A stretch of DNA of 54,567 nt, taken from Anaerolineae bacterium (GTDB taxonomy: Bacteria > Chloroflexota > Anaerolineae > B4-G1). Location: positions 1 through 54,567 of the forward strand of contig JAFGED010000206.1 in assembly GCA_016931785.1 (NCBI GenBank). The letters are read 5' to 3'. Below, one piece after another: positions 2,854 through 40,549 of the stretch. Made by a program: the position numbers and the translations under genes. The stretch's first letter is position 1. Each line of letters begins with the position of its first letter. Under the pieces are notes generated by a model that was not told where the DNA came from, did not search any database, and was given only the letters and a program-made list of their open reading frames with translations.

Positions 2854-5800
2854 GTGTGTGGGAGTGGCTCGATAAGGGGAGATTATTCGTTGGTGCATAG
2901 AGCACGCCGGTGGGTGGCCGTTGGCTTGGTATTGCTGTTTCTGCTGGCCTTTGTGCCGCGGGTCGTGTATCCCGTCTCCCGACCTCTCCAGTGGTACTTT
3001 CGCTCGGCGCAGTTCTTCCAGGCGGTCCTGCGCGGGGACCTGGCAGGCACGCTCTTCTCCGAGCACCCCGGCGTGACGGTGATGTGGCTTTCGGGGGCGG
3101 CACTATGGGGCTGGTACGGCTTGCAATCCCTCTTGGGTCTGAATCCACCTACACCTTTGGAGACGGAGGGCTATGCTTTCTTTGACCGGGTTACGGTAGC
3201 GGTGGTGCCGCTGGCGTTGGTCGTGGCACTGGGTATCGTCTGGGGTTGGTATCTCCTGCGTCGTCTCTTTGGCCAGCGGGTGGCCTGGGTGGCAGCAGTG
3301 TTGTGGGCTGTCGATCCCTTTTACCTGGCCAACTCCAAGGCGCTTCACCTCGATGCCACGCTTTCCACGCTGATGCTGCTTTCTGCCCTGTGGATGCTGA
3401 CCTATCTGCGCGAGCATCGCTGGCGGTATCTGGTCCTATCGGCAACCCTGGGTGGCCTGGCGATCCTGACCAAGATATCGGCTGTTTTCTTGTTTCCCTT
3501 TTGGGGGCTCTGTCTGCTGGTTGATTGGCTCCCGTCTATTCGCGGTTTCCGATCGCTAATCTCGAATCTTGGGCCTTTGATATCGCGTATCCTGCTCTGG
3601 CTTCTCATCGCTGCTGCTGTGTTCTTTGTCCGCTGGCCTGCCCTATGGGTGCAGCCCGCGGCCAGCTTTGATTGGATGATCAACGAAGGGATCCTGCTTC
3701 ACAAGGACGATGTTCGCGATCAGCCGCTGTTCTACCGAGGGACGCTGGGCGTGCAGGACCCCGGCCCCGGGTTTTACCTCGATACGATCCTTTTTCGCAC
3801 GACTTTTCTGACGTTGCCCTTTGTCGTCGTCGGCTTGCTGGCGCTGTGGGGCCGGCAGCGGGAGGAGCGGCTATCGCTGCTGCTGGTCGGTTTTGCCGCG
3901 TTCTTCTTCGTCCAGATGTCGCTGAGCGGTTGGAAGGACGGGCGCTACTTGTTGCCCATTTTCCTCATTTTGGACATTCTGGCCGCTTGCGGCTTGACGT
4001 GGTGGGCGGGCCGCCTGCCGCTCAAGTCCTTGGTGCAGATGGGCGTCGTCGGAGGGCTACTGACAACCCAGGCTATCGTCGTGTTCTTGCATCACCCTTA
4101 CTATGGTACCCACTACAACGTGCTATTGGGCGGCCAGCGTGCCGCGGAGCGGGTTTTTCCCCTGGCCGAGTGGGGGGAGGGATTGGATCTGGCGGGGCGG
4201 TACGTGGATAGCCAACCCGGCGCGGAGGATTTCACGATCGGCACGCAGTTCCTGGCCAACGAAATGCTTGCCCAGCACGTGCGCGCGCCGGTCTATGAGG
4301 TCCGACAGGTAAAAGACGAGGCGGAGTATCTGGTGTTTGGCGTGCAGTACACGACGCGTGGCAGGAACTATGATCGTTGGGGGGAGGAGTGGGAGGAGAC
4401 CTACAGGTTCCGTGAGCCGGAGTTTGTCGCTGCCTTCGATGGCATCCCCTATGCCTGGGTTTACCGACCCGACGCGGCGCCGGTCGTTCCGCGAAAGATG
4501 GATGCCAGTTTAGGGGGGGCGATTCGGCTGGTGGGCTACCGCCTGGCTCAGGATAGTGTGGCTCCTGGCGATAAATTGGTATTGACCCTTTACTGGAGAG
4601 CCGAGGGGCCGGTTGACGAGTATTACAACGTCTTTGTGCATCTACAGGCGGCAGACGGGAGCCTGGTGGCCCAGCAGGACAACGTCCCCGTGCGCGGCTC
4701 TTGGCCTACCAATGAGTGGGAAATGGATGTGCTGATTGAGGATCCATATGAAGTGCAGGTCCCCCTCGATCGAGCTCCCGCTGAATGCGTGTTGAGCGTA
4801 GGGATGTACAAACCGACGACGATGGAGCGGCTGGAGGCCGTCGGCGCCGATGGTGAGCGGCTGCCGGAGGATCGGGTGGTGCTGACCAACGTCTCGGTGC
4901 AGCCGGTGGTGGGCTGGTGGCGGTGGGTGTTTGCGGGGGCGTGGGTGGCGGTTGTTTTTGTCGGAATCGTGTGGCCACTCGTCTTGAAAAACGATCGGCA
5001 TGATGGTACGCGTTGTCAAAAGTTTTTCGGTGAGGAGGGCTTTCTGCAAGGCATTGGAAAGGCGGAAAGAATCTGCCTCGCAGTAATAGTGGTTGGCATC
5101 CTCGTGTATTTGTATTGGTACGGTGCTGTGATCCGCATAAGAGAGGCCAACGTAGACATGACACGCGCCGATCAGAGAGCGTACTTGCTCTACGCCGTAG
5201 AGATGTACAAGGTACTACATGAGGGCAAGGAGTTCCGCTCTCAGGGTGCACAAGGCCCCTTGTATCCAATGCTCCTTTCCCTGGTGTATGATCCAAGCCT
5301 CACCGAGGAAGAGTATTTTGTGCGTGGAAAGTACGTTAGCGCCGGGCTGTCGCTAATCCTATTGGGAGGGTTGTTTTTCATATTCAGGAAACACTTTTCC
5401 TTGCTGCATAGTGCTAATATCGTACTGGCGGAGGCCTTTATGGTGTTCTTGTTCAAGGCGCCATCATTTCACGCTGAGCCTCTGTTCTACTTTTGGGGCT
5501 TTTGTGCGTTTGTGTTACTGTACAGGATGTTGGTCAAACCCTCGTGGAAACTGGGCGTTCTGACCGGATTCGTGATCGGCATAGCGCATTTTACCAAACC
5601 ATCCTTGTTGCCCGCCTTGGGGCTTTTTCTCCTGTTTTCGGTGGCCAAGGCGATCGCGCCGCTTTGCTCCAGATTGGTCAAGCGGTCGTGCATCGCCCTT
5701 GGTCAATTCGATGTGCGGGTATTCTCTTCGCGTTTGGTGAGCATTGTTCTCGTTGCGGTCACTTTTCTGTCTACGGTCTATCCCTACATCAATTCGAACA

Positions 5801-6411
5801 AGAAGGTCTTTGGCAAGTATTTCTATTGTGTCAGTACGACCTTCTACATGTGGTACGACTCGTGGGAAGAGGCGAAACAGGGGACAAAAGCGTATGGAGA
5901 TCGAGAGGGATGGCCGGACATGCCGCCTGAACAGCTCCCCAGCCTCGACAAATACTTGCGAGAGCATACCGTACAGCAGATCGTGAATAGAGTATGGAAT
6001 GGATTTCGGATACTTCATCAAAGCTCCGCGAGTTCGTATGGCTATTACAAGTACGTTTTGATCTACTTGGTGGGTTTCCTCGCTATGGCCATTCTCAATC
6101 GTCGTCATACCCTGGAGATGGCAGCTAAACGCCCTTTCCTCTTGCTGTTTTGCCTCTCTTATTTTGCTGCCTATCTGTTTGCTTATGCCTGGTACACGCC
6201 AATTGCCAGTGGAAACCGGTTCACTTTGGCTTTGTTTCTTCCCTTTATGTTTGCCATCTCCCGTGCCATTTTCGCGCAGCCCACGGTATATCTGCCGGTT
6301 CGCCCTTTTGGCGTTCAGATCAAATTACTGAACGTGCTGAACGCCTTGGTGTTGGCTCTTCTCTTTTTTGACATATACGGTGTATTGACGGAAAAGGTAC
6401 TGACTATGTGA
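2854..6411 (+). CDS. Type-A GT-C-like membrane protein with one C-terminal shared module and TM anchor, fused in frame to a second bare PMT_2/ArnT-like GT-C membrane domain (1185 aa)
   Basis: Continuous ORF. The N-terminus parallels the genes at 6515 and 23721 (VSRPLQWYFRS...FSEHPGVTVMW...DPFYLANSKALHLDA). Shared module at about 4507-4905 (LVGYRL..LTLYWRA..YNVFVHLQ..WPTNEW..). TM VAVVFVGIVWPLVL. From about 5060 a second polytopic domain begins (TRADQRAYLLYAVEMYK, HFTKPSLLPALGLF). The start is uncertain: GTG 2854 is the longest option, and TTG 2890 or GTG 2893 follow AGGGGAG. Confidence 0.8.
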   Translation: MCGSGSIRGDYSLVHRARRWVAVGLVLLFLLAFVPRVVYPVSRPLQWYFRSAQFFQAVLRGDLAGTLFSEHPGVTVMWLSGAALWGWYGLQSLLGLNPPTPLETEGYAFFDRVTVAVVPLALVVALGIVWGWYLLRRLFGQRVAWVAAVLWAVDPFYLANSKALHLDATLSTLMLLSALWMLTYLREHRWRYLVLSATLGGLAILTKISAVFLFPFWGLCLLVDWLPSIRGFRSLISNLGPLISRILLWLLIAAAVFFVRWPALWVQPAASFDWMINEGILLHKDDVRDQPLFYRGTLGVQDPGPGFYLDTILFRTTFLTLPFVVVGLLALWGRQREERLSLLLVGFAAFFFVQMSLSGWKDGRYLLPIFLILDILAACGLTWWAGRLPLKSLVQMGVVGGLLTTQAIVVFLHHPYYGTHYNVLLGGQRAAERVFPLAEWGEGLDLAGRYVDSQPGAEDFTIGTQFLANEMLAQHVRAPVYEVRQVKDEAEYLVFGVQYTTRGRNYDRWGEEWEETYRFREPEFVAAFDGIPYAWVYRPDAAPVVPRKMDASLGGAIRLVGYRLAQDSVAPGDKLVLTLYWRAEGPVDEYYNVFVHLQAADGSLVAQQDNVPVRGSWPTNEWEMDVLIEDPYEVQVPLDRAPAECVLSVGMYKPTTMERLEAVGADGERLPEDRVVLTNVSVQPVVGWWRWVFAGAWVAVVFVGIVWPLVLKNDRHDGTRCQKFFGEEGFLQGIGKAERICLAVIVVGILVYLYWYGAVIRIREANVDMTRADQRAYLLYAVEMYKVLHEGKEFRSQGAQGPLYPMLLSLVYDPSLTEEEYFVRGKYVSAGLSLILLGGLFFIFRKHFSLLHSANIVLAEAFMVFLFKAPSFHAEPLFYFWGFCAFVLLYRMLVKPSWKLGVLTGFVIGIAHFTKPSLLPALGLFLLFSVAKAIAPLCSRLVKRSCIALGQFDVRVFSSRLVSIVLVAVTFLSTVYPYINSNKKVFGKYFYCVSTTFYMWYDSWEEAKQGTKAYGDREGWPDMPPEQLPSLDKYLREHTVQQIVNRVWNGFRILHQSSASSYGYYKYVLIYLVGFLAMAILNRRHTLEMAAKRPFLLLFCLSYFAAYLFAYAWYTPIASGNRFTLALFLPFMFAISRAIFAQPTVYLPVRPFGVQIKLLNVLNALVLALLFFDIYGVLTEKVLTM

Positions 6412-6514
6412 TTGTGTGCGTTGGTCGATTACGTATGTTCTTTGCTAAGGGGCGATTGGGTTTTCCGGGAAATGCGAGCTACTTGTGCGGTCGGCGTTGC
6501 GTGGAGTTCTCTCG

Positions 6515-8683
6515 ATGAAAGGAAGCTATCCGTTGAAACATAACGTTCGTCGTTGGACGTATATTGGTTTAGCGCTGGTGTTCTTGCTAGCTTTTGTGTT
6601 GCGGGCCGTGACGCCTGTTTCGCGCCCGCTACAGTGGTATTACCGTTCTATCGATTTCATCACCGCGATCATGGAGGGCCGCTGGGCCGATACGTTCTTC
6701 AGCGAACACCCTGGGGCTAGTGTGATGTGGATCGTAGGGATCGCGCAGCATCTGGTCTACAATGTGCGTGTGGCATTGGGACAGAATCCCCCGCCGCTGT
6801 TGGATATAGATGGACGGGTGTTCAACACTGAGGTGGCGGTAGGTGTGTGGGCGCTGGCGGCTGTTATTTCGGGCACTATTGCGGCGGCGTGGCATCCTTT
6901 GAGGAGATTATTTGGCAGACGCGTGGCTTGGGCTTCTGTTTTGCTAATGGCGTTGGATCCGTACTACATCGCTAACGGGAAGGTGCTGCATATCGATGCA
7001 TTGCTTTCGGCGCTGATGCTGCTTTCGGCCCTGGCGTGGATGGTCTATGCGAGGGATGAAGATCGGCGATCCTTTATCGTCTCGGTGGTCTGTGGCGGCC
7101 TAGCCGTGTTGACCAAGGCCCCGTCTATTTTCCTGATACCTTTTTGCGCTTTGGCCCTTCTGGTGACGCGGTTTGGTGAAAAGCGGTTCAGCCTGCGCTG
7201 GCTGCTGCGTCGATGGGCGCTGCCATTGTTGGTCTGGCTGTGTATCGTGACCGCGCTTTTTTTCCTGCTGTACCCGGCGGCGTGGGCGATACCCGGTGAG
7301 ACTTTTGGATTTGCGCTGAAGGAGATAACGTGTCATGTGTCGCAGCCGCATACCAATCCGGTGTTTTTTCACGGCACTGCATGGGTTTCCGATCCTGGAC
7401 CATTGTACTATGTTTATACCCTGGCTTTCAAGTCCAGTTGGGTTAGTCTGAGCCTTGCTCTCTTGGGTTTATTGATATTTTGGCGATGGCCGTCGGCGAA
7501 ACGCCGCTCGGCTATTCTTGTGGTTGTGTATGTGATGTGTTTTGCGATACAGATGACGATCGGTGGCAAAAAAGGCCTACGTTATTTGTTGCCCTTATTC
7601 CCGATGTTTGACGTGTTGGCAGGCCTGGGATGGCTGGCGTTCCAAAAGGGAGTTGCTATGCTGGTGCGACGCTCCGTTATCTCTTGGGTGGTCGCTGCCC
7701 TGCCCATCGTCGTGCTGGCGGTAATGGTGTTACCTCTGCATCCATACTACGGTACACACTATAATATCCTTTGGGGAGGGATTAGAGCCGCCACACGCGA
7801 GTTCCCGCTACAAGAACAGGCAGAGGGATACGATTTGGTCGGGGAGTGGCTTGAGGAGCGTGGAGGGAGTCGACTGCGTGTGGTGTCGCAGCAGCCCGAT
7901 ATGCTCATGCAGCACACAGGAGCGCAGATTTTCGAGTACGATGCACCCGAGGCCAACCCTGCTAACCACAGCGTGGATTATTTTGCCTTTGACCGCAATC
8001 ACCTGGTGCGCAACTACCGTGATGATCTTTGGTGTACTACATGGCAGCGCTATCGCAGTCGGGAGCCCGCATTTCAGGTTGATTTCCTGGGAGTTCCTTA
8101 CGTCTGGGTTTACGAGGCTTTGCCTTCTTCTCTGACCATCGATGCGTCTAGTCATCTTTTTGGCGGGTGGCTGGATGATGGCATCGAGTTGATCGGCTAT
8201 GACTGGCAAGATGAGTGGGCCGTGCCGGGGGATTCACTCCCGCTATATCTTTACTGGCACGCCGACCAGTCGCTAGCGACCGACTATACTGTATTCGTGC
8301 ATCTGCATGGGCCTGATGGGGGATTGCTGGCCCAGTGCGATAGTCCGCCTCTAGGAGGTGCACGCCCGACGACGAGCTGGGCTCCCGGCGAAGTGGTCGG
8401 GGACATGTGCGATGTGGTGTTACCGGAAGATGCACCCCTGGGACAGTATCAAGTGTTTGTGGGGATGTATGCCTGGCCCAGTTTGGAGCGTCTGCCAGCC
8501 TTTGCAGCAGATGGCGCGGATTTACCTGATGGCCGGCTGCCATTGTTGACTTTTGAGCTGAGTGACGCGAATACATTGCGTCTGCCCTGGTTATGGATGA
8601 TATTGGCATGGCTGGTGGTACTGGTCGTGTTAGGGGTTGGCGTAATGGGAATTAGGAAGCAGAAGGAAGAGTCTGGGGTCTAG
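6515..8683 (+). CDS. Type-A GT-C-like membrane protein, one shared C-terminal module plus C-terminal TM anchor
   Basis: ORF 6485..8683. ATG 6515 lies 8 nt after GGAG. VSRPLQWYYRS...FSEHPGASVMW...DPYYIANGKVLHIDA. Module LIGYDW..LYLYWHA..DYTVFVHLHGPDGGLLAQCD..RPTTSWAPGEVV..GQYQVFVGMY. Tail TM LAWLVVLVVLGVGV. Confidence 0.85.
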   Translation: MKGSYPLKHNVRRWTYIGLALVFLLAFVLRAVTPVSRPLQWYYRSIDFITAIMEGRWADTFFSEHPGASVMWIVGIAQHLVYNVRVALGQNPPPLLDIDGRVFNTEVAVGVWALAAVISGTIAAAWHPLRRLFGRRVAWASVLLMALDPYYIANGKVLHIDALLSALMLLSALAWMVYARDEDRRSFIVSVVCGGLAVLTKAPSIFLIPFCALALLVTRFGEKRFSLRWLLRRWALPLLVWLCIVTALFFLLYPAAWAIPGETFGFALKEITCHVSQPHTNPVFFHGTAWVSDPGPLYYVYTLAFKSSWVSLSLALLGLLIFWRWPSAKRRSAILVVVYVMCFAIQMTIGGKKGLRYLLPLFPMFDVLAGLGWLAFQKGVAMLVRRSVISWVVAALPIVVLAVMVLPLHPYYGTHYNILWGGIRAATREFPLQEQAEGYDLVGEWLEERGGSRLRVVSQQPDMLMQHTGAQIFEYDAPEANPANHSVDYFAFDRNHLVRNYRDDLWCTTWQRYRSREPAFQVDFLGVPYVWVYEALPSSLTIDASSHLFGGWLDDGIELIGYDWQDEWAVPGDSLPLYLYWHADQSLATDYTVFVHLHGPDGGLLAQCDSPPLGGARPTTSWAPGEVVGDMCDVVLPEDAPLGQYQVFVGMYAWPSLERLPAFAADGADLPDGRLPLLTFELSDANTLRLPWLWMILAWLVVLVVLGVGVMGIRKQKEESGV

Positions 8684-8701
8684 GCCAGATGGCAGGCGAC
8701 G

Positions 8702-11338
8702 TTGGCCGAGGCTTTTCGTGATTGTCTCTCATCTAGTTGGAGATGTGACAGATTGCAAGCGTTTTTTGCGAAGGAGCGGTCGGTTCTTGCTAGAAAAGGT
8801 TTGGCGTTGAGCGTAAGAAGTACCACAGAAACTAGAGCCAGGTGGTTTCGTTGGTTGTGCGTCGGGGTCGCATACTTTGCACTCGCGCTGCTGATGACAT
8901 ACCCCCTGGTCTTGGAATTCAACGATAATTTTGGAGGGTACCATGGCGACATCCTCCCCACTTTGTGGAACCGATGGTGGTTGAGGGAGGCGCTGCAAAA
9001 AGGACTCGACCCGTACTTTACGCCATATCTGTTCTATCCAGGCGGGGCGTATCTGCTCTTTCACAATATGGGCTGGTTCAATATACTTACAGGCCTTGCC
9101 TTGGGGCCGTTCTTTGGGGAAGTCGGTTCGTACAATGCGATCATATTGGCGAATTTCACGCTGTGCGGACTTGGGGCCTATGCGTTGATCAGATACCTTG
9201 GTGAGCGGGAAATCGTCGCTTTTGTTGGAGGCCTGGTATATGCTTTCTTTCCGTATCATATGTCAAACATCTTGACTCAGCCGGAGATTGCCAACGTACA
9301 ATGGGTGCCCCTGTATGTGCTTTATTTGATGGAAGCTACTCGTGGAAAAGGACCCGCAACGGGGCTCCTCGCAGGGCTGTTTCTTGGATTGACCGCGCTT
9401 GCTCACGTGCACTTGCTGACGATGGTGGGGATGCTTACCGCTTTGTGGCTTGCCTATAGCTTGGCGTGCGAACGCGCTGTGTGGAGTTGGCGTTCTATTC
9501 GGAATCTCGCAATCATCGGGCTTGTTCTTTTGGCGTTGGCGGGGCCGTTTTTCTTTCCAATGGCTGCGTACTTTGTGAAGGGTGGAGAGCTTGCAGACAC
9601 GTTGACCGAACAGGATGATTACAGGCAAACGGATGTGCTGGCTTACTTGGTGCCTTCTCGCTATCATCCACTATTGGGGCTACCCTACTTGTTTTATGGG
9701 AAGCATTTCTACTATAACCGGAACTGGCAGCCGACCCCGGGATACGTTGTCCTGTTTCTGTTAGGATATGCATTTGTCCGGCGCTCTCGGCGCAGGGCTT
9801 TTTGGGCATTTCTCGCCTTGGTGCTGTGTGTCCTGGCTCTCGGGCCATATCTGCGCGTAGCAGGGCGCATATTTTGGGAAATTCCCCTGCCTTATCATTT
9901 GGTATCAGGTTTACCTGTCATCCGCGCGTTGCGGGCCTCGGATAGATTCAATGGCATGCTGGCGCTTCCCGTGTCGGTCCTAGCAGCGTTCTCGCTTTCT
10001 GATCTGTTGGCCAAGGTGCAGAGGCGGCTGAACGTGCTCTTTGCACGTGGAGCGGCTGTCTTGTTTGGCTGTTTGATTCTGTTCGAGTACCTCGTCGTAC
10101 CGTTCCCTACGATGCGCCCCCAGATCTCGTCGTTCTATGAAGCGCTACGCTCGGAAGACGGGCAATTTGCTGTTGTAGACGTACCTACAGGATGGGCAGT
10201 GTCTCGATACTATTTGTACTATCAAATGGAGCACGGTCATCCTATTGTGGAAGGGCACATCTCGCGCCCAATTGGTGGGACATATCGTTTCATCGGTCAG
10301 GTGCCGCTGCTTACCCGCGTCGATGAATATCAAAGTGAGTGGAAACTCGACTTCCGGGATGTTTCCCGCCAACTGAGCCCTCTGGCTGATGCAGATGTGC
10401 GGTATTTGATCGTTCACAAAGACTTTGTCAAAGAGGAAGGTCATCTACCAGCCTGGCTTGACTGGATCACGCTGCAGCCACGGTACGAGGACGAGCAGAT
10501 CATCGTGTACTCAACTCGACCGGAATATGGGCGTGACTTTGAGTGGGAAAGAGATCTGGGAGCTGAAGTTGGCATCATTCGGGCAAAGTTGCCGATGGCG
10601 GGAGAGTTTTCGCAGGGAAGCGTTTTTGAGGCAGAGATCCGCTGGGGGAGCCGAGGGGCGCCGGCTCAGAATTTGGCTGTGGAGGTCGCGCTGGTTTCGG
10701 AGGAAAATGGGCAAATAGTGCAGCGGACGCATCGGCCTATTTTGGAAGAGTGGCCGACTGGCCAATGGCCGGCTGGTACGGTGGTTATTGATCGATATAG
10801 ATTTCAGATCGATCCCATGCTGCCTGGCGGAGTCTATTCTGTGCGCGTATCATTGCTGGATGCCGAGACCCTGGCACCTGTTGGTGAGCAGGCCGATCTG
10901 GGCTCTATCGTTATCCACGAGTTGCCGCGCAGCTTTGATCCTCCAACACCGGCGGTCGTTTTGGATGTGTCTTTCGGTGAGGATTTACGCTTGGTAGGCT
11001 ATGACCTAGAGCTGGATGCTGAGGAGCTAACATTGGTGTTACATTGGCAGGCATTGCGCCGCATGGATGACACGTGGAAATTCTTTGTACACGTCTTCGA
11101 TCCAGACACCGGCGCGGTGGTAGCGCAAGCCGACGTTATGCCGCGCAATTGGGCTTATCCGACCAACTGGTGGGCAGAGGGGGAGTACGTCGGCGATCCT
11201 ATCAGCGTCTCGATGGAGGGTGTCCCATCTGGCACCTTTGGGATAGCGGTGGGCGTGTACCATCCAGATTCGGGAGAGCGGCTTGTGACATCCTTGGGCG
11301 AGGATCGACTCGTTTTGCCACAGGAGGTTTCCCGATGA
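8702..11338 (+). CDS. Type-B polytopic membrane protein (GT-C-like, family not assigned) with two shared C-terminal modules
   Basis: N-terminal motif LLMTYPL...WNRWW...YFTPYLFYPGG..LLFHN is shared with the genes at 11335, 15984 and 21239. A degenerate module 1 is followed by module 2 (LVGYDLEL..LVLHWQALRRMD..FFVHVFDPDTGAVVAQADVMP..YPTNWWAEGE). The start is uncertain: TTG 8702 is the longest option, and in-frame TTG 8801 or 8807 are possible. Confidence 0.8.
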   Translation: MAEAFRDCLSSSWRCDRLQAFFAKERSVLARKGLALSVRSTTETRARWFRWLCVGVAYFALALLMTYPLVLEFNDNFGGYHGDILPTLWNRWWLREALQKGLDPYFTPYLFYPGGAYLLFHNMGWFNILTGLALGPFFGEVGSYNAIILANFTLCGLGAYALIRYLGEREIVAFVGGLVYAFFPYHMSNILTQPEIANVQWVPLYVLYLMEATRGKGPATGLLAGLFLGLTALAHVHLLTMVGMLTALWLAYSLACERAVWSWRSIRNLAIIGLVLLALAGPFFFPMAAYFVKGGELADTLTEQDDYRQTDVLAYLVPSRYHPLLGLPYLFYGKHFYYNRNWQPTPGYVVLFLLGYAFVRRSRRRAFWAFLALVLCVLALGPYLRVAGRIFWEIPLPYHLVSGLPVIRALRASDRFNGMLALPVSVLAAFSLSDLLAKVQRRLNVLFARGAAVLFGCLILFEYLVVPFPTMRPQISSFYEALRSEDGQFAVVDVPTGWAVSRYYLYYQMEHGHPIVEGHISRPIGGTYRFIGQVPLLTRVDEYQSEWKLDFRDVSRQLSPLADADVRYLIVHKDFVKEEGHLPAWLDWITLQPRYEDEQIIVYSTRPEYGRDFEWERDLGAEVGIIRAKLPMAGEFSQGSVFEAEIRWGSRGAPAQNLAVEVALVSEENGQIVQRTHRPILEEWPTGQWPAGTVVIDRYRFQIDPMLPGGVYSVRVSLLDAETLAPVGEQADLGSIVIHELPRSFDPPTPAVVLDVSFGEDLRLVGYDLELDAEELTLVLHWQALRRMDDTWKFFVHVFDPDTGAVVAQADVMPRNWAYPTNWWAEGEYVGDPISVSMEGVPSGTFGIAVGVYHPDSGERLVTSLGEDRLVLPQEVSR

Positions 11339-13875: not shown

Positions 13876-13907
13876 GCAAAAGGTGTGTGATTGGAGACGT
13901 GCTCGGT

Positions 13908-13935
13908 TTGCGCATTTGGTGAAACTGAATAGAAT
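13908..13935 (+). promoter_or_regulatory. Sigma70-like promoter, cassette P2 copy 2 (-35 TTGCGC, 16 nt, -10 TAGAAT)
   Basis: Block 13906..13951 matches 2547..2592. It is followed by AAGGAG (13971-13976) and ATG 13987. Confidence 0.6.
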
Positions 13936-13986
13936 AGCGTACTTGACGGCCCGTTTTTCACATTCTACTAAAGGAGAAAGACAGAA

Positions 13987-15870: not shown

Positions 15871-15891
15871 CAACTTGGGTCTCACTCTCTC

Positions 15892-15930
15892 GGCGCCAGG
15901 TGCTCTATCTAGGGTGCCTGGCGCCTTTTT
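15892..15930 (+). terminator. Rho-independent terminator after the beta-helix/PKD gene
   Basis: GGCGCCAGG (15892-15900) pairs with CCTGGCGCC (15917-15925), extendable by wobble pairs, and is followed by TTTTT (15926-15930). Confidence 0.75.
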
Positions 15931-15946
15931 CCCTCGCAAGGCCTCC

Positions 15947-15975
15947 TTGCCCTAAACGCTCTCTTGCGCTACAAT
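15947..15975 (+). promoter_or_regulatory. Sigma70-like promoter, cassette P1 copy 1 (-35 TTGCCC, 17 nt, -10 TACAAT), ATG 8 nt after the -10: probable leaderless mRNA
   Basis: The 45-nt block 15945..15989 differs at only 3 positions from 23682..23726. There is no purine-rich SD between TACAAT and ATG 15984. Confidence 0.65.
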
Positions 15976-21186: not shown

Positions 21187-21238
21187 GCGGCGTTGGGGAT
21201 GAGGGGCCTTGAGCCTTGATGCTGTAAGGAGCTATCGA

Positions 21239-23692: not shown

Positions 23693-23712
23693 ACGGCCTC
23701 TTGCGCTACAAT
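23684..23712 (+). promoter_or_regulatory. Sigma70-like promoter, cassette P1 copy 2 (-35 TTGCCC, 17 nt, -10 TACAAT), probable leaderless mRNA
   Basis: TTGCCC at 23684-23689 overlaps the last codons of the upstream gene (stop TAA 23690-23692). TACAAT at 23707-23712. ATG 23721 lies 8 nt downstream with no SD. Confidence 0.6.
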
Positions 23713-23720
23713 CCTTGCCG

Positions 23721-30455: not shown

Positions 30456-30528
30456 AGGCGTTTTTCAGTTTTTGGGCAAGAGTGACGCTGTAACGGCCAA
30501 CGCGAATGCAGAGCCCCGATTGCTTCAG

Positions 30529-30717
30529 AATTGAAATGGGTGTGTTTCATTTCAGTTGGGCCGCTCGTTGCCCGGCGATCAATCGCCGGGCTAGCGAAGC
30601 CGCGCCCCGTTTACGGGGCTGAAAAAGCCGGGTTGACCCGGCTTTGCCCCTTAGCCCGGATGTTTACGTCCGGGCGACGCCGGAATTCAACTCATTTGAA
30701 ACACACCCAATTGAAAT
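30529..30717. mobile_element. MITE-like element A: 171-bp body (30538..30708) with perfect 12-bp terminal inverted repeats, four internal GC hairpins and a 9-bp target-site duplication
   Basis: TIRs GGGTGTGTTTCA (30538-30549) and TGAAACACACCC (30697-30708). Direct repeats AATTGAAAT at 30529-30537 and 30709-30717. Internal palindromes CCCGGCGAT/ATCGCCGGG (30571-30590), GCCCCG/CGGGGC (30604-30619), AGCCGGG/CCCGGCT (30626-30643) and GCCCGGA/TCCGGGC (30654-30675). Confidence 0.65.
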
Positions 30718-30730
30718 ACGCCCGCGTGCC

Positions 30731-30758
30731 TTGAATTTACCGCGTAATAGGGTAGAAT
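30731..30758 (+). promoter_or_regulatory. Sigma70-like promoter of the ZIP transporter gene (-35 TTGAAT, 16 nt, -10 TAGAAT)
   Basis: TTGAAT at 30731-30736 and TAGAAT at 30753-30758, then AAGGAG (30778-30783) and ATG 30790. Confidence 0.6.
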
Positions 30759-30789
30759 TCGGGTCCAAACCGTCGGGAAGGAGATCGAG

Positions 30790-31605
30790 ATGGTCGAATG
30801 GTTTCAGGGATTGAGTCCCATTGTGCAGGCCCTGGTAGGCACCTGTTTTACCTGGTTTGTGACCGCACTGGGAGCGGGCTTGGTTTTTTTCTTCAAGAGC
30901 ATTAATCGCAAGGTCCTGGATGGCATGCTGGGCTTTGCCGCCGGCGTCATGATCGCCGCGAGTTATTGGTCGCTGCTGGCCCCGGCCATCGAGATGGCCG
31001 AGGAATCAGGTGGATTGCCTGCCTGGCTCCCGGCCGCCGGTGGGTTTCTGCTAGGCGGTGCGTTTCTCTGGCTTATAGATAAGCTGCTGCCTCACCTGCA
31101 CCTTGGGCTTCCCATCGAGGAGGCGGAGGGCATCAAGACGAGTTGGCAGCGCAGCATCTTGCTGGTGTTGGCGATCACGCTGCACAATATCCCGGAGGGG
31201 CTGGCCGTGGGCGTGGCCTTTGGCGCTGTGGCGGCCAATCTGCCGGCGGCGACGCTGGCTGGCGCGGGCGCTCTGGCGCTGGGCATCGGTATCCAGAACT
31301 TTCCCGAGGGAGCTGCCGTCTCCGTGCCCCTGCGCAGGGAGAATATCTCCCGTCTCAAGAGCTTTTGGTATGGTCAGGTGTCCGGGATGGTTGAGCCTGT
31401 CGCAGGTCTGCTCGGCGCGGCGGCGGTCCTGTTGATGCGGCCCATCCTGCCCTACGCGCTGGCCTTTGCCGCCGGAGCGATGATCTATGTGGTCGTCGAG
31501 GAACTCATCCCCGAATCGCAGTTGGAGACGAGTACCGACGTCGCCACCATCGGCGCGATGCTGGGCTTTGCGGTGATGATGACGCTGGACGTGGCGTTGG
31601 GTTAG
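30790..31605 (+). CDS. ZIP family divalent metal transporter (ZupT/GufA-like)
   Basis: 271 aa, polytopic. ZIP signature [18 protein letters not shown] and [17 protein letters not shown]. Confidence 0.85.
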
Positions 31606-31702
31606 GCTATACTCTGACCATTCCCGCTCACCGGTGGATGATCTTGCCGGTGGCGGGGATGTGTGTTTATGGGGCCTTGAGTTTCCCACCAGATGGGGTA
31701 AA

Positions 31703-34519: not shown

Positions 34520-36801
34520 GAGATCGGTTGAAGGACCATCGCGGGCTGGCCATCATCCTGGCGCTTTACGTGATCGTGGCCGTGCTGTATGGCGCGCTGA
34601 CGCCCATCTTTGAGACGCCGGACGCCAACGGCCACTATGCCTACATCCACGAATTGACCGAGGGGCGCGGTTTCCCGGTCCACGATACGCCGTCCGGCGA
34701 GCGGGTCACGGGGTACGTCGCCGGGCATCCCCCGCTTTACTATCTCCTCAGCGCCGCGGCGACCTTTTGGGTAAAGGATGACGTGGATTTTGCAGATTGG
34801 GCCTGGTTCAACCCCTTCCACGCGATGGGCAACGCCGATGCCGCGGCCAACAAGAACCGCCTCGTCCACACCGACGCCGAGGCTTTCCCCTGGCGCGGCA
34901 CGCCGCTGACGGTGCACATCGCGCGCCTGGTCTCGACCGCGCTGGGAGCGCTGGCTGTCGTGGCGGCCTACGGGATCGTGCTGGAATTCTTCCCCGAACG
35001 CCGCTGGCTGGCTTTGGGCGCAGCCGCGTTCACGGCCTTTAACCCCATGTTTCTCTTCACCGCCGCGCGGGTGAGTAACGATGCCGCCGTGACCGCCTTT
35101 AGCTCGCTCGCCGTGTGGGGCGCTGTGCGGTTGGCGATGCGCGGCCTTTCTTGGCGCGGGCTTGCGCTGCCGGGCGCAGCGTATGGCTTGGCGGCGCTCT
35201 CCAAGCTCAGCGGCGTGATCCTCGGCCCCGTCCTCCTTCTCGCGCTCCTCTTCGATGCGTGGCGTGTAGGGCACTACAAAGTCAGCCGCCTCTTCTGCAG
35301 GGATCAGCTTGCTCGTCTGCTCGCTGGCGGGGTCATCCTCTTTGGCACCACTGCCGCCGTCTGTGGCTGGTGGTTCATCCGCAACCTGGTGCTCTACGGC
35401 GAATTGATGGGCACCGATGCCTGGTTGAGCCACACCGCGACGGTGCGGGCGGACCCCATCGGATTCCTCGACGTCATCCCCCAGTTGAAAGGGTTGGAGA
35501 TGTCCTACTGGGCGATGTTCGGCTGGTTCAACGTCGCCGCAGCTTCGTGGATGTACCAGGTCTGGTGGGTGCTGGTGCGGCTGGCGGCCTTTGGTCTGGC
35601 CTCCATCCTGGTGGACCAGTGGACGGCGCGCCGGTTCCCACGCCCGTTGCAGGCCGGATTGGTGGTCGCGGCCTTTTCCCTTCTGCTGATATTCGGCTCC
35701 GTCTGGCGCTTTATCATGATCGTGTTGGGCTCCCAGGGCCGCTACCTGATGCCCGTCACTGCCGTCATCTCCATTCTCATGGTGCTCGGCCTGGATCGCC
35801 TGATCCTGCACCGCTTCACGCCTGGGCTGGCGTTGTTCCTGGGCGTGGGGCAGTTGGCGATTGCGCTGATTTGTCTCTTTGCCTTCATCCTGCCGGCCTA
35901 CGCCAGGCCGCAGTTGGTGGAGGAAAGTGCGTTGCCTGCCGACATGCTGCGCTTTGACGTGACCTTCGAGGGCACGCCGATCCAGCTCCTGGGCGGTGTG
36001 ATCGAGGCGGATGGTGTGCGGCCCAGCGAAAGCGTGGCGCTGAGCCTCTACTGGCGGGCCTTGGAGACGGTACAAAAAGACCCCATAGCCTTTGTCCAGA
36101 TCCTGGGCAAGGATGCAGAGCCCTTGGTGGGGGAGGATTGCTATCCGGGGCGGGGCAACTTTCCCGCCACGCTCTGGCAGCCGGGCGTCATCTACCGCGA
36201 CCGCTACCGCCTGGTCGTCGCCGCAGACGCCGAAACGCCCATCATCGCCGCTTTGCACGCCGGGCTTCGCTGGCAGGGCGCCGAGCGCCTCATTGGCCTG
36301 TTCCCCTCTGGTCGCCCGGTGCCCGAGCCGGTGCTCTTCGACCTGGTGGCCCTGCGCTCGATCGAGCAGCCCTCGGACAAAGTCGCCTACCCCGTGGGCG
36401 CGCGGATCGGCGACGCCATCACGCTGGCGGGATACGATATCTCTGCGCAGGAGGTGCGTCCCGGCGAGACGTTGACCGTCACGCTCGTCTGGCGCGCCGA
36501 GGGGGCTCCCGATGGGGATTACACGGCCTTCGTCCACCTGGTCGACGGGGACGGCAACCTCGTGGCCCAGGACGACCATCCCCCTTTGGGAGACGAGTAC
36601 CGCACCTCCTTCTGGGCGCGCGGCGACGTCATCCGCGATGCGTACAGCCTGACGCTGGATGAGGATCAGCCGCCTGGCGGCTGCACGCTCCTGATTGGGC
36701 TGTACGACCCGGCGGCGCAGGTGCGCGTGCCAGCCTACGACGGCCTGGGCGGGCGCTTCAGGGATGACGCCGTCATCGCGGGCGGGGTGACCGTCAGGTG
36801 A
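34516..36801 (+). CDS. Type-C PMT_2/ArnT-like GT-C glycosyltransferase with two shared C-terminal modules
   Basis: ATG 34516 is in an ATGA overlap with the upstream stop. IFETPDANGHYAY, GHPPLYYLLSAA, EAFPWRGTPLTVHIARL. Module 2 LAGYDISA..VTLVWRA..DYTAFVHLVDGDGNLVAQDDHPP. Confidence 0.9.
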   Translation: MRDRLKDHRGLAIILALYVIVAVLYGALTPIFETPDANGHYAYIHELTEGRGFPVHDTPSGERVTGYVAGHPPLYYLLSAAATFWVKDDVDFADWAWFNPFHAMGNADAAANKNRLVHTDAEAFPWRGTPLTVHIARLVSTALGALAVVAAYGIVLEFFPERRWLALGAAAFTAFNPMFLFTAARVSNDAAVTAFSSLAVWGAVRLAMRGLSWRGLALPGAAYGLAALSKLSGVILGPVLLLALLFDAWRVGHYKVSRLFCRDQLARLLAGGVILFGTTAAVCGWWFIRNLVLYGELMGTDAWLSHTATVRADPIGFLDVIPQLKGLEMSYWAMFGWFNVAAASWMYQVWWVLVRLAAFGLASILVDQWTARRFPRPLQAGLVVAAFSLLLIFGSVWRFIMIVLGSQGRYLMPVTAVISILMVLGLDRLILHRFTPGLALFLGVGQLAIALICLFAFILPAYARPQLVEESALPADMLRFDVTFEGTPIQLLGGVIEADGVRPSESVALSLYWRALETVQKDPIAFVQILGKDAEPLVGEDCYPGRGNFPATLWQPGVIYRDRYRLVVAADAETPIIAALHAGLRWQGAERLIGLFPSGRPVPEPVLFDLVALRSIEQPSDKVAYPVGARIGDAITLAGYDISAQEVRPGETLTVTLVWRAEGAPDGDYTAFVHLVDGDGNLVAQDDHPPLGDEYRTSFWARGDVIRDAYSLTLDEDQPPGGCTLLIGLYDPAAQVRVPAYDGLGGRFRDDAVIAGGVTVR

Positions 36802-39053
36802 GCCAAGTTCCAAATCTCGAGTCTCAAATCTCAAATCGCAAATCGCAAATCGCGTTGATTCTCCTCGCCTTTGTGTTGCTTGGCGTCTTTTACAGCCTCG
36901 CCACACCGCCCCTGGAGGCCTCAGACGAGTTCGACCACTACCCCTACGTCCAGTATGTGCAGACGCAGGGCGCGCTGCCGGTGATGGACCCCGCCGATCC
37001 CGACCCCTGGCGGCAGGAGGGCGGTCAACCGCCGCTGTACTACCTGCTGATGGCCGGGCTGACCTCCTGGATCGACACGAGTGACCTGGAGGACGTGCGC
37101 TGGCTGAACCATCACGCCTTCATCGGCATGCCGGACCAGGTAGGCAACAAGAACCTGATCATCCACCGGCCTGAGCGGGAGGCGTTTCCGTGGCGAGGTA
37201 CGGTCCTGGCCGTCCACGTGATCCGGCTGGGCTCGGTGGCGCTGGGCGCGGTGACGGTGTGGCTGGTGTGGCGGGTGGCGGCCCAACTCTGCCCGCAGTC
37301 CGGCTGGGCGCCCCTGGCGGCGGCTGCCCTGACCGCCTTCAACCCGATGGTCCTCTTTGTCAGCGCCGCGGTCAATAACGACGTGCTGGCGGCGCTTTTC
37401 GGCAGTCTGGCGTTGTTGATCTTGCTCAAAATCTCTGATCTCAAATCTCAAATCTCCTGGACGAGTTATCTATGGCTGGGCATCGTCCTCGGCCTGGGAG
37501 CACTGACCAAGCTCAGCCTCGCTGCGATGATCCCCCTGGCTCTCCTCGTCGTCGCCCTCCGTACCTGGCGCCAGCATACAGAGACGTCCTTCTCTCGCCG
37601 GGCAGCATGGGTCATTGCTCATTGCTCATTGATCATTACGGTGGTTTTAGCCACCGCCGGCTGGTGGTTCCTGCGCAACTGGCGCCTCTACGGCGACCCC
37701 ACCGCCGTTAACGTCTTTATGCAGATTCTGGGCTATCGGGCCGAGCCGCTGACGCTGAAGGACCTGTGGGAGGAGTTTGGGACCTTCCGCCGCACCTACT
37801 GGGGGTTGTTCGGCGGGGTCAACGTGCCTGCCCCGGAGCCGTTCTATGTCTTCTGCGACCTGCTCTCGCTGGCTGGGCTGGTTGGGCTGGCCCTGCGCGC
37901 CTGGCGGCGGCGGAGGGAGGGCATCGGCGTCTGGTGGATACCCCTGCTGTGGATCGCCATCCTTTTCGCTGCCCTCCTGCGCTGGGTGGTGATGTACTAT
38001 TCCTTCCAGGGCCGCCTGATGTTCCCCGGCATCGCCGCCCTCAGCACGTTCCTGGCCCTGGGGCTTGGGGAGTGGCTCCCGGAGCGCTGGCGTCCGGCGA
38101 TTGGGTGGGCAGTGGGTGGCGTGCTTTTGGCGCTGGCGGTGATCGTGCCTTTCGTCTCCATCCTCCCGGCCTATGAATATCCCGCGCCGCTCGCCCTGGC
38201 CGACGTGCCCGCGGAGGCGCGCGTCGAGCCGGTGGACGTGGGCGGCGTGGCCCGCATCGTGGGATGGGAGTTCGAGCAACAGGCGGTCCAACCGGGCGAC
38301 CTTGCTGCCTGCGTCAAAGTTGTGGTATACTGGGAAGCCACAGCGCCCGATGGGCGGGACTATGCCAGTTCTGGCGAACTGGTCAGCTTTGCAAAGCTCT
38401 TGGGGCGCGGGCACCGGGGGGCGGGACAGGTCAACCGGCACCCGGTCGACGGCATGGTGCCCACCAGCCTGTGGCAGCCCGGCCAGGTGTGGCGCGACCG
38501 CTACTGCGTGAAGGTCGATCCCGATGCGGCGGCCCCCAGCCTCCTGCGAGTCGAGGTGGGGTTGTACGACCCGCAGGCGGGGCAGGACCTGGGTTCGGTG
38601 CGCGTGGGGGAGGCCAAGCTGGCTCCGGCGGGAACGCAGGCTCTGCCGGATCACGCGCTGGAAGTGGAGCTGAGCGACGGGATCGCGCTGCGCGGCTACG
38701 ATCTCTCGGCCGGAAGCGTCGCGCCGGGAGAGGCAATCACGCTGACGCTCCACTGGGAGGCGCGGGGCGCGCCCTCGGCCGATTACCAGGTGTTCGTGCA
38801 CCTCGTCGGCGCCGCGCCGGAGCCAGCGGCGCAGGGGGATGGCCCGCCGCTCATGGGCGACTATCCCACGCGGGTGTGGTCGCCCGGCGAGCTCGTCGTC
38901 GATCCGCACGTCGTAACGCTGCCGCTCGATCTGCCTGCGGGGCGGTACCGGTTGCTCGTGGGAATGTACGGCCTGGAGACACTGGCACGCCTGCCCCGGC
39001 TGGACGGTGCGGGTGACTCTATCGAGATTCCTGTTCACATAGAGGTGCGTTGA
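36798..39053 (+). CDS. Type-C PMT_2/ArnT-like GT-C glycosyltransferase with two shared C-terminal modules; two heptamer-repeat insertions in the reading frame
   Basis: GTG 36798 is in a GTGA overlap with the upstream stop. An in-frame TTG at 36855 directly after the repeat tract is an alternative start. PLEASDEFDHYPY, GQPPLYYLLMAG, EAFPWRGTVLAVHVIRL. Module 2 LRGYDLSA..LTLHWEA..DYQVFVHLVG..YPTRVWSPGELV..GRYRLLVGMYGLE. Confidence 0.88.
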   Translation: MSQVPNLESQISNRKSQIALILLAFVLLGVFYSLATPPLEASDEFDHYPYVQYVQTQGALPVMDPADPDPWRQEGGQPPLYYLLMAGLTSWIDTSDLEDVRWLNHHAFIGMPDQVGNKNLIIHRPEREAFPWRGTVLAVHVIRLGSVALGAVTVWLVWRVAAQLCPQSGWAPLAAAALTAFNPMVLFVSAAVNNDVLAALFGSLALLILLKISDLKSQISWTSYLWLGIVLGLGALTKLSLAAMIPLALLVVALRTWRQHTETSFSRRAAWVIAHCSLIITVVLATAGWWFLRNWRLYGDPTAVNVFMQILGYRAEPLTLKDLWEEFGTFRRTYWGLFGGVNVPAPEPFYVFCDLLSLAGLVGLALRAWRRRREGIGVWWIPLLWIAILFAALLRWVVMYYSFQGRLMFPGIAALSTFLALGLGEWLPERWRPAIGWAVGGVLLALAVIVPFVSILPAYEYPAPLALADVPAEARVEPVDVGGVARIVGWEFEQQAVQPGDLAACVKVVVYWEATAPDGRDYASSGELVSFAKLLGRGHRGAGQVNRHPVDGMVPTSLWQPGQVWRDRYCVKVDPDAAAPSLLRVEVGLYDPQAGQDLGSVRVGEAKLAPAGTQALPDHALEVELSDGIALRGYDLSAGSVAPGEAITLTLHWEARGAPSADYQVFVHLVGAAPEPAAQGDGPPLMGDYPTRVWSPGELVVDPHVVTLPLDLPAGRYRLLVGMYGLETLARLPRLDGAGDSIEIPVHIEVR
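36812..36853. repeat. Heptanucleotide tandem repeat, 6 units (CAAATCT CGAGTCT CAAATCT CAAATCG CAAATCG CAAATCG)
   Basis: Read directly. It occupies codons 5-19 of the ORF starting at 36798 (..NLESQISNRKSQI..). Confidence 0.85.
37427..37455. repeat. Second copy of the CAAATCT heptamer repeat (4 units), in frame inside the same gene
   Basis: CAAAATCT CTGATCT CAAATCT CAAATCT, encoding KISDLKSQIS. The three paralogues have no equivalent residues at this position, which lies before the conserved LGLG.L(T/S)KL(S/T) segment. Confidence 0.8.
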
Positions 39054-39088
39054 CCAGCCCGTAACTTGCAACCTGCAACTCGAAGCTT

Positions 39089-40549
39089 ATGACCCAAGAC
39101 TGGATCACCCGCATCTTTACCTCTCGCCACCGCTGGCTGGCGGTATTGGCCACGTTGGTGCTGTGTGCGCTGCTGGCGCTCGGCATCGGCTACCTGCTGG
39201 CCGAGTTCGGCCCGCTCATCGCCGCCGCGGGATTGGCGGCGCTGTTCGTCGGCCTGTGGATGCTGCGCGATATCGAGGTGGCCTACTGGGCCGTCGTCGG
39301 GGTCGTGTGCCTGCTGCCCTCCGCCGCTTTTCCTTTCGACGTTGGCTTTACCCCCACCTTCCTCGACGCTGCGCTGGGGGCGCTGTTCTTCGTGTGGGTG
39401 TTTCAGGTGGCCACCGGCGTCCAGCGGGACTTTATCGGTACGTCGCTGGGGGGTCCCATCGTCGTGTTTATGCTGTTGGCAGTGGGGGCCTTTGTCCTGG
39501 GGCTTGCTCACGCGCCGCTCACCTCCTACAGCCTGCGCCACTTTGCCGAGCTGCTGCTCAGCATCTCCTTGGTTTTCCTGATCGCCAACACGGTGCGCGA
39601 TGCCGGCCGCCTGGGGCGTATCGTGCGCGTGTTTCTCCTGGGGGCGTTTGCGGCGGCTGGCCTGGGCATTGTCCTCTACGTCGTCGCCTCCTGCGTCTCT
39701 GAGGATCTGGTCATAAGCGCGCTGTCTGCGCTGGGGCGGTTCGGCTATCCCACCGGGTCTGGGGTTTTGCAGTACATCCGCCAGGACCCCGAGTTGCCCC
39801 TGCGGGCGACCTCCACGTCGATCGACCCGAACGTGCTGGGCAACCTGCTCAACCTGGCGCTGGGCGTCGGCGTGCCGCAGTTGTTCGCAGAGCGACCTCT
39901 GATTCGGCGGCGCATCCTGGTGCCGATGTTGGGCGTCATCGCGCTCTGCCTGGTGCTGACCATCAGCCGGGGGGCGTTGGGAGGCTTGGGCGCGGCGCTG
40001 GTCGTCCTCGCCACGCTGCGCTACCGCAAGCTGTGGTGGCTCCTGTTGGCGGCGGCGGTGGCGATCCTGGTCGTCGCGCCGGGCTATGTCGATCATTTCA
40101 TCCAGGGACTGCAGGGGGAGGACCTGGCGACCCAGATGCGCTTTGGCGAGTACAAGGACGCCTTGATCTTGATCGGCCGCTACCCGTTCCTGGGCGTCGG
40201 GTTCGGCGGGTCGCCCGACATCGATACGTACATCGGCGTTTCTATGGTCTATCTCCTGATCGCCGAGCAGATGGGACTTATCGGGCTGGCCAGCTTTCTC
40301 GTCATCGTGGGGGTCTTTTTCGTCCAATTCTGGCGCACGCGCGCTGCGGCGGCTTCCCTGCCCGATCTGGAGCCGGTGTGGTGGGGGCTGCACGTCGCCA
40401 TCGTCGGCGGGCTGGTGAGCGGCGTCGTCGATCATTATTCGTTCAATCTCGACTTTCATTACTCCGTCACCCTCTTCTGGATGGTCCTTGGACTGGCGAC
40501 AGCGGCGACGGTGATTATTCGACAAAGGTGTGAAGCGACTGTAGATTGA
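39089..40549 (+). CDS. Wzy_C-domain membrane protein (O-antigen ligase / polymerase / O-oligosaccharyltransferase family)
   Basis: 486 aa with about 10-12 TM segments. A loop with LVLTISRGALGGLGAALVVLATL is typical of the Wzy_C family. It lies 35 nt after the last GT-C gene. Confidence 0.75.
   Translation: MTQDWITRIFTSRHRWLAVLATLVLCALLALGIGYLLAEFGPLIAAAGLAALFVGLWMLRDIEVAYWAVVGVVCLLPSAAFPFDVGFTPTFLDAALGALFFVWVFQVATGVQRDFIGTSLGGPIVVFMLLAVGAFVLGLAHAPLTSYSLRHFAELLLSISLVFLIANTVRDAGRLGRIVRVFLLGAFAAAGLGIVLYVVASCVSEDLVISALSALGRFGYPTGSGVLQYIRQDPELPLRATSTSIDPNVLGNLLNLALGVGVPQLFAERPLIRRRILVPMLGVIALCLVLTISRGALGGLGAALVVLATLRYRKLWWLLLAAAVAILVVAPGYVDHFIQGLQGEDLATQMRFGEYKDALILIGRYPFLGVGFGGSPDIDTYIGVSMVYLLIAEQMGLIGLASFLVIVGVFFVQFWRTRAAAASLPDLEPVWWGLHVAIVGGLVSGVVDHYSFNLDFHYSVTLFWMVLGLATAATVIIRQRCEATVD

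Follow-up and report, generated by a model that had tools for sequence, protein, structure and literature searches.

A core-plus-accessory array of 13 GT-C-type membrane glycosyltransferase genes, closed by a Wzy_C gene, in an Anaerolineae bacterium

In mycobacteria and corynebacteria, arabinogalactan and lipoarabinomannan (LAM) are built by a set of non-redundant GT-C glycosyltransferase paralogues (EmbA/B/C and AftA-D), some of them in tandem as in embCAB. These enzymes elongate a lipid-diphosphate-linked polymer outside the cytoplasm, the Emb proteins carry carbohydrate-binding beta-sandwich domains at their C-termini, and the set includes Lcp1, an LCP ligase for attachment to peptidoglycan. 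A GT-C enzyme paired with a Wzy_C-family enzyme on the outer face of the membrane is found in the S-layer glycan clusters of Paenibacillus and Geobacillus (WsfD with WsfB/WsaB), which consist mostly of cytoplasmic glycosyltransferases and a transporter and contain a single GT-C, and the three-component Gtr/CsbB-YfhO systems (a GT2 enzyme, a flippase and a GT-C) decorate envelope polymers outside with polyprenyl-phosphate-linked sugars. Here, we analysed a stretch of 54,567 nt from an Anaerolineae bacterium of the phylum Chloroflexota (contig JAFGED010000206.1), referred to as a whole as the window. Between positions 2854 and 39053 it holds 13 large forward (+) strand GT-C genes with 14 catalytic modules, compared with 3-4 genes in the Emb/Aft set, and a gene for a 486-aa Wzy_C protein (39089-40549, +) closes the array.

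The open reading frame (ORF) list, the translations, profile searches and predicted folds agree on this architecture, which bears out the central claim of a first-pass annotation made from the sequence, a co-directional array of 13 genes and 14 modules ending in Wzy_C. All-against-all BLASTP sorts the genes, named here by their first coordinate and all on the + strand, into three types and two singles. Type A (37-41% identity) comprises the N-terminal part of 2854 (2854..6411), 6485 (6485..8683, with a probable start at ATG 6515) and 23715 (gene at 23721..25859). Type B (33-38%) comprises 8702 (8702..11338), 11335 (11335..13875; 38% identical to 8702), 15984 (15984..18530) and 21209 (21209..23692), and type C (32-38%) comprises 25852 (25852..28128), 28125 (28125..30455), 34516 (34516..36801) and 36798 (36798..39053). 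The singles are D1 (18637..21186, within ORF 18481) and D2 (31703..34519, within ORF 31634). They had been joined in one class, 'type D', which dissolves on comparison: hhalign gives their membrane parts a 3% probability, and a C-terminal domain (CTD) is all that they have in common.

Other details of the first-pass annotation fared differently. The start/stop overlaps were exact when the junctions were checked (ATGA at 11335 and 34516, GTGA at 28125 and 36798, and 8 nt at 25852), and the motifs EAPDE..APLYY, ESPDE..HPPLYY, SLWSDEG..HPPLYF and FQGDES, the MSER starts and EAFPWRGT are all present in the translations. That neighbouring genes are each other's closest relatives is true for part of the array, and fails for 36798, whose best paralogue in BLASTP is 25852, and for 15984 and 21209, which both have 11335 as their best match. 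Nor are all large + strand ORFs polytopic: 13987..15870 (+) encodes a secreted 627-aa protein with a beta-helix and two PKD domains (Pfam PKD_4, PKD, Beta_helix and NosD). A second non-GT-C gene that interrupts the array, 30790..31605 (+), encodes a ZIP transporter (Pfam). Rfam and tRNA scans of the window returned nothing.

Profile searches recognised nine of the 13 genes directly. PMT_2 exceeded its gathering cut-off of 26.1 bits in types A and C and in D1 and D2, at 38-56 bits (2854, 48; 6485, 45.7; D1, 41.3; 23721, 53.8; 25852, 56.3; 28125, 38, beside a weak DUF2142 match; D2, 47.6), and PMT (PF02366) passed its cut-off of 22.7 bits only in types A and C, with scores of 23-31 bits (30.3 in 6485). 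Type B had no match in the Pfam or NCBIfam scans. Its membrane part aligns with that of type A (hhalign, 94% probability, E 1.6e-7), and the precomputed assignments of its relatives in the database are DUF6311, PTPS_related (PF10131), DUF2079 or PMT_2. An AlphaFold2 (AF2) model of gene 11335, taken as the representative of the type and based on an alignment of 56 sequences, reached a pLDDT of 91.8 and a pTM of 0.83, and its confident Foldseek matches were GT-C enzymes only, among them STT3/AglB (E ~3e-10), DPY19, ArnT (target TM-score 0.58) and EmbA/B, so that type B, too, is GT-C by predicted fold. A sequence search of the PDB gave no useful match for type B, type C, D2 or the second module of 2854 described below, and a weak one to ArnT (5ezm, E 7e-4) for type A. 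In NCBIfam, the protein starting at 6515 weakly matched WsfD, an S-layer glycan hexose transferase; all family-specific NCBIfam scores were far under their curated cut-offs. Annotation pipelines already label these proteins 'GT39/ArnT family'.

The fourteenth module, which we call E, is the C-terminal 470 aa (~aa 716-1185) of the fusion gene 2854 and follows a complete type A part (~aa 1-715) made up of a membrane domain, one CTD and one transmembrane (TM) anchor. Direct Pfam and NCBIfam scans of E found nothing. Elsewhere, the module occurs as a stand-alone protein of ~455 aa in Anaerolineae, Leptolyngbya, KSB1 and Sumerlaeota, in some cases PMT_2-positive or named ArnT-like. Its AF2 model (pLDDT 92.9) has confident Foldseek matches that are all GT-C enzymes (Pmt1/2, Pmt4, AftA, STT3, EmbB, ArnT, PglB and ALG9), and because E is thereby a GT-C by predicted fold, the count of 14 stands. 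By profile or by predicted fold, all modules of the array are thus of GT-C type. The joint between A and E (~4990-5010) is in frame without a stop codon, and in a related locus (L001; related loci are given L numbers throughout) the two parts are encoded separately, by genes that overlap at ATGA. The fusion is compatible with the expected topology, since the final TM anchor of the A part would bring the chain back to the cytoplasm.

An acidic residue in the first loop is retained in every type. In type B, D53 is kept in at least 90% of 56 relatives; in the E module, D57-Q58 is invariant in 45 relatives; E32/D35 of type C and E65 of type A are invariant among the paralogues of the window; and the first-loop motifs of D1 and D2 are FQGDES and SLWSDEG. 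A simple, crude hydropathy scan predicted 8-14 TM helices per GT-C protein, with extra N-terminal helices in D1. We used the clean cases, 6485, 15984, 25852 and D2, each with nine TM helices ahead of the soluble part and an excess of K/R on the side of the N-terminus; the counts for the other proteins were ambiguous. In 6485, nine TM helices, a soluble part of 288 aa and one further helix follow one another, and the K/R count of 25 versus 7 favours an inside N-terminus. Solved GT-C enzymes have an invariant topology. From this homology, together with the basic N-termini of the GT-C proteins, the odd number of TM helices in the clean cases and the extra terminal helix with a basic tail that anchors type A, we infer that the first loop and the C-terminal domains face outside, as had been proposed, an orientation indicated in these cases rather than proven.

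The second feature that unites the array is the CTD itself, a beta-sandwich of ~130 aa (for example 25347-25763, 34127-34510 and 38646-39026). With a hidden Markov model built from the terminal copies we counted 23 copies across the 13 proteins, one in type A and D1, two in types B and C and three in D2. Between types whose membrane domains BLAST cannot align, these terminal copies still share 28-46% identity, and the residues G, W, Q, D, T, W, D and Y are invariant. There was no match to any Pfam or NCBIfam model and no sequence match to a solved structure. As modelled in type B, the domain is similar to the FnIII domains of RbmA, to transglutaminase and other Ig-like barrels, and to a chain of the Aquifex aeolicus WzmWzt O-antigen transporter (Foldseek); RbmA is a polysaccharide-binding scaffolding protein of biofilms. 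Searched against 1.84 billion cluster representatives (50% identity), the profile found 31,533 at E<=1e-3 and 7,513 at E<=1e-30. Most matches are proteins of ~950-1050 aa with three copies, and those with a name are called 'glycosyltransferase family 39' or 'ArnT family' and come from metagenome-assembled genomes (MAGs) of Chloroflexota and Anaerolineae. The CTD is a large uncharacterised domain family.

The closing gene (39089..40549) encodes a polymerase/ligase-like membrane protein of the Wzy_C family (PF04932, 48.3 bits against a cut-off of 31.7) with ~13 predicted TM helices and no sequence match to solved structures. No other gene of the cluster is as well conserved: its identity is 68-94% in the best 120 of the 90%-identity clusters listed and about 70% across many of them, far exceeding the adjoining GT-Cs. 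In seven of seven contexts it lies directly 3' of a same-strand run of GT-C genes, most often as three-CTD GT-C, C, C, Wzy_C, and the genes downstream of it vary. The gene adjoining it matches TMEM260_N in L050 and L053. The Wzy and WaaL proteins of O-antigen pathways are usually very divergent, and the conservation seen here speaks for a central role in the envelope, not one of the serotype kind.

Arrays of this kind recur in other assemblies, and for every part the nearest relatives belong to uncultured Anaerolineae and Anaerolineales. In L001 and L002 the genes run A-(E)-B-PKD-B-B-PMT_2, with 50-75% identity, and at least 13 consecutive GT-C genes lie on the GTDB MAG contig CAZKDJ010000002.1. 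The conserved core consists of a three-CTD GT-C, two type C genes and Wzy_C, preceded in the window by A, C and C. D2 opens this core, and a three-CTD GT-C takes its position in L047, L048, L050, L052 and L054. Of the two type C genes that follow, 34516 has orthologues 62-71% identical in L047, L048, L052 and L054, and 36798 has orthologues of 52-83% identity. Orthologues in other assemblies are 52-89% identical overall, whereas the membrane parts of paralogues within the window share 28-41%. Hence the paralogues are of old origin, and that each was kept speaks for separate functions. 'Tandem-duplicated', as the array had been described, thus applies in deep time and not to any recent duplication.

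Upstream of the core lies an accessory block (A-E, A, B, B, beta-helix/PKD, B, D1, B) whose gene content differs between assemblies. Individual members recur in other loci. The beta-helix/PKD protein has orthologues of 44-64% identity inside the arrays of L001, L004, L005, L060, L063, L066 and L069, D1 is 73% identical in L001 and 88% in L056, and 15984 has a 73% identical orthologue in L001. The GC content at third codon positions (GC3) is 0.58-0.73 for 2854-23692, of which 21209 is the final gene, and 0.77-0.85 for 23721-41453 and the flanking genes; it is 0.79 in the first gene after the step, the type A gene at 23721, whose orthologues are 66-89% identical. The same junction, with its GC step, occurs in three independent metagenome contigs: L056 (D1, B, then 23715 at 87%), L066 (21209 at 72.5%, PKD, A at 77%, C, C, three-CTD GT-C) and L069 (21209 at 71%, then A at 73.5%). 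The block looks like a product of horizontal transfer or, failing that, like a stretch of different composition set beside a native core. Genes foreign to the array also occur inside such arrays, namely the ZIP transporter in the window, L047 and L059, and a BrnT/BrnA toxin-antitoxin pair in L054 (9455-9974).

Predicted transcription signals divide the array as well. A strong intrinsic-terminator-like hairpin with a 15-bp stem (15892-15925, +) lies 3' of the PKD gene and is followed by a promoter-like TTGCCC-17-TACAAT (15947-15975, +), with ATG 15984 only 8 nt past the -10 box. A second promoter-like copy (23684-23712, +), part of an identical 45-nt repeat (repeat region 23677-23723), precedes ATG 23721 at the boundary between accessory block and core, and it is here that the GC3 step falls. 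A further predicted TAAAAT box (in the region 31699-31714) lies 7 nt before ATG 31712. As far as sequence prediction goes, the array probably comprises several transcription units (five are predicted) with leaderless first genes. With its conserved core, its variable and GC3-distinct accessory block and these internal elements, it is not the single unit that had been assumed.

On the other side of Wzy_C, the cluster may extend to a 295-aa protein with an N-terminal hydrophobic segment (40566..41453, +), which has no Pfam or NCBIfam match and is kept, among the contexts compared, only in L047. A prepilin peptidase (A24; 42168-42914, -), which is also kept in L047 and appears unrelated, separates the cluster from an operon on the opposite strand. 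The members of this operon, all identified with Pfam and NCBIfam, are a plain LCP glycopolymer transferase gene (43087 to ~44082, -), a gene that joins an anti-sigma domain (zf-HC2) to an LCP domain (44082 to ~45338, -) and the gene for an ECF sigma factor (45332-45919, -). The LytR_cpsA_psr domains score 134.5 and 97.4 bits, and TIGR00350 reaches 122 bits against a cut-off of 62.3. This trio is a candidate attachment and regulation module, in which the zf-HC2-LCP fusion could be a regulator that senses wall-glycopolymer status. Further on, a NAGPA-type phosphodiester glycosidase (47736..48608, -; PF09992, 72 bits), also present in L047 and possibly associated with the cluster, could act on sugar-phosphodiester bonds of wall polymers. 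Between them, two genes without family matches (46021-47714, -; GC3 0.72 and 0.47) have no counterpart in L047, which is otherwise syntenic, and look like a small insertion. As the first-pass annotation had noted, no cytoplasmic GT-A or GT-B transferase, nucleotide-sugar enzyme, flippase or polyprenyl-phosphate-sugar synthase is encoded among the window ORFs scanned with Pfam or NCBIfam; the verdict on a few small ORFs and on the sensor/regulator ORFs (49503-54315) comes from their translations only. The flanks of related loci do not consistently hold any of these functions either.

What might such a cluster do? Starting from the GT-C identity of the modules, the common CTD, the gene order conserved across assemblies and the linkage to Wzy_C, we propose that it makes or elaborates a glycopolymer of the cell envelope at the external face of the cytoplasmic membrane, a proposal whose chances we judge to be about even. 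Each GT-C module would use its first-loop acid to transfer a sugar from a polyprenyl-phosphate donor to a growing glycan outside, and the one to three CTDs of each enzyme might bind an acceptor polymer shared by all, in the way of the carbohydrate-binding domains at the C-termini of the Emb proteins. Wzy_C would polymerise or ligate a polyprenyl-diphosphate-linked unit of cytoplasmic origin once it has been flipped to the outside, the LCP transferases may, in this lineage, fix the product to peptidoglycan, and the accessory block would probably add lineage-specific side chains. The donors, a glycan rather than a protein as acceptor, the binding role of the CTD and the cooperation of the enzymes in one pathway are what we infer here. 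Wzy_C-family and LCP enzymes use polyprenyl-diphosphate-linked glycans that are assembled on the cytoplasmic face, and polyprenyl-phosphate-sugar donors require cytoplasmic GT2 synthases. Assembly 'entirely outside the cytoplasm', as originally suggested, is therefore untenable, and the genes for donor and precursor synthesis must lie elsewhere in the genome.

Several observations weigh against this proposal. The affinities to PMT_2, PMT and TMEM260_N would suit protein O-glycosylation equally well, and the internal terminator and promoter-like elements suggest several transcription units. The evidence that the CTD may bind sugars consists of its predicted fold and its residue types. The ECF sigma/anti-sigma-LCP/LCP trio is found in L047 and not in L048, L050, L052, L053 or L054, and the NAGPA gene is linked to the cluster only in L047, the closest relative. 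Furthermore, a GT2 polyprenyl-phosphate-sugar synthase, a flippase or an initiating transferase is neither present in the window nor found consistently in the 10-kb flanks of the related loci. A more far-reaching version is tentative and, on balance, doubtful: the core and the lineage-specific GT-C expansions might together form the machine for the non-lipid outer layer or layers of the multilayered Anaerolineae/Chloroflexota envelope, the product being a polysaccharide wall polymer made mostly from polyprenyl-phosphate sugars outside, and the CTD a new, very large glycan-binding family that tethers the enzymes to the nascent polymer.

The rival that survives best, unlikely though we think it, is protein O-glycosylation. 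PMT/TMEM260-like GT-Cs would then modify Ser/Thr of secreted or envelope proteins, such as the beta-helix/PKD or S-layer-like proteins, with the CTDs docking on folded domains and Wzy_C acting as a PglL/WsaB-type O-oligosaccharyltransferase, an activity that the Wzy_C family does include. Types A and C score above the PMT (PF02366) cut-off, but Pfam finds no MIR or PMT_4TMC domain to go with it. The weak WsfD match of 6515 and the TMEM260_N match on the gene adjoining Wzy_C in L050 and L053 would fit this explanation, yet the family-specific scores are all far under the curated cut-offs. Likewise, the PKD (Ig-like) protein is conserved inside arrays, but it is confined to the accessory block and absent from the core, and 13 non-redundant enzymes are many for such a task.

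Also unlikely, and ranked after it, is the absence of any common pathway, i.e. independent GT-C paralogues acting on different targets (lipids, teichoic-acid-like polymers, proteins) and co-located through ancient duplication and horizontal insertion. The retention of the terminal CTD across all types argues against this, as it points to a common ligand, and so do the invariable position of Wzy_C after a GT-C run (7/7, usually three-CTD GT-C, C, C, Wzy_C), the translational coupling through overlaps of 4 and 8 nt and the A-(E)-B-PKD-B synteny at 50-75% identity. It would, however, account readily for the composite origin seen in GC3, the variable content of the accessory block, the terminator and promoter-like elements inside the array, and the tolerance of a ZIP transporter and toxin-antitoxin pairs within such arrays.

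We also considered whether type B might be oligosaccharyltransferase-like and, in the manner of STT3, AglB and PglB (GT66), pass a whole glycan from a lipid diphosphate to protein instead of transferring monosaccharides. The best Foldseek matches of the type B model are indeed STT3/AglB (E ~3e-10), over 584-960 aligned columns that include the soluble part, and both groups have a large C-terminal extracytoplasmic domain. However, no WWDYG-like motif occurs in any of the proteins, there is neither a Pfam STT3 match nor sequence similarity to solved structures, and the target TM-score is higher for ArnT (0.58). The likeness is one of fold, membership in GT66 was rejected for want of the motif and the profile match, and we regard the whole idea as improbable. 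Finally, the coincidence of the GC3 step (23692/23721) with the 45-nt repeat raised the possibility that a low-GC accessory block had been wrongly joined to a high-GC core, a chimera that we rejected as scarcely credible because L056, L066 and L069 reproduce both junction and step and a run of at least 13 GT-C genes exists on CAZKDJ010000002.1.

All parts of the cluster belong to known superfamilies. In the searchable literature we could not find a description of an array on this scale, in line with the earlier impression that no such system had been described, nor of a common domain without a profile model, of a core with a highly conserved Wzy_C or of the core-plus-accessory layout. The envelope layers of Chloroflexota have been suggested to consist of polysaccharide or protein, with their make-up unresolved (PMC13319060). 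The cluster offers concrete candidate genes, recurring across the class, for these poorly understood outer layers, and the analysis brings to light a domain that lacks a profile model although it is very abundant, with over 31,000 clusters at 50% identity.

How, then, does the array compare with known systems? With the Gtr/CsbB-YfhO systems it would share the decoration of an envelope polymer outside with polyprenyl-phosphate sugars, as proposed here, and it differs in having no adjoining GT2 or GtrA gene and in its many GT-Cs, which carry CTDs. It resembles the S-layer glycan clusters in the pairing of GT-C and Wzy_C enzymes on the outer face; its glycosyltransferases, however, are GT-Cs only. 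The likeness to ArnT and the PMT_2 enzymes (GT83, GT39-like) lies in the PMT_2 matches of nine genes and in the first-loop DE and PPLYY-type motifs of types C and D1/D2. The proteins differ from ArnT in their extra CTDs, their length (710-960 aa against ~550) and the lack of arn operon partners, and they fall far short of the ArnT (GT83) model NF009784 (13.6-22.8 bits against a cut-off of 567). Membership among the GT39 protein mannosyltransferases likewise finds no support in Pfam, with PMT limited to types A and C and neither MIR nor PMT_4TMC found.

The Emb/Aft set, to which the first-pass annotation had already compared the array, is a fair functional parallel, and the two downstream LCP ligase genes, which that annotation had overlooked, strengthen it. 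Here, too, non-redundant GT-C paralogues stand partly in tandem and carry C-terminal beta-sandwich domains, and EmbA/B and AftA are among the fold matches; extracytoplasmic elongation of a lipid-diphosphate-linked polymer and LCP attachment to peptidoglycan are proposed features of the array. The differences are the Wzy_C partner, the phylum, and a CTD that belongs to another family, one without a Pfam model. Pfam gave no Arabinose_trans or Arabino_trans_C match, and the window holds no genes of the decaprenyl-phosphoryl-arabinose (DPA) pathway, UbiA or DprE. Because the Arabinose_trans profile does not match, the array is not a member of the Emb/Aft family, and it is best read as analogous to the Emb/Aft/Lcp system rather than homologous to it at the family level. 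If this reading is true, large-scale extracytoplasmic glycan assembly from lipid-monophosphate sugars would not be limited to the Mycobacteriales.

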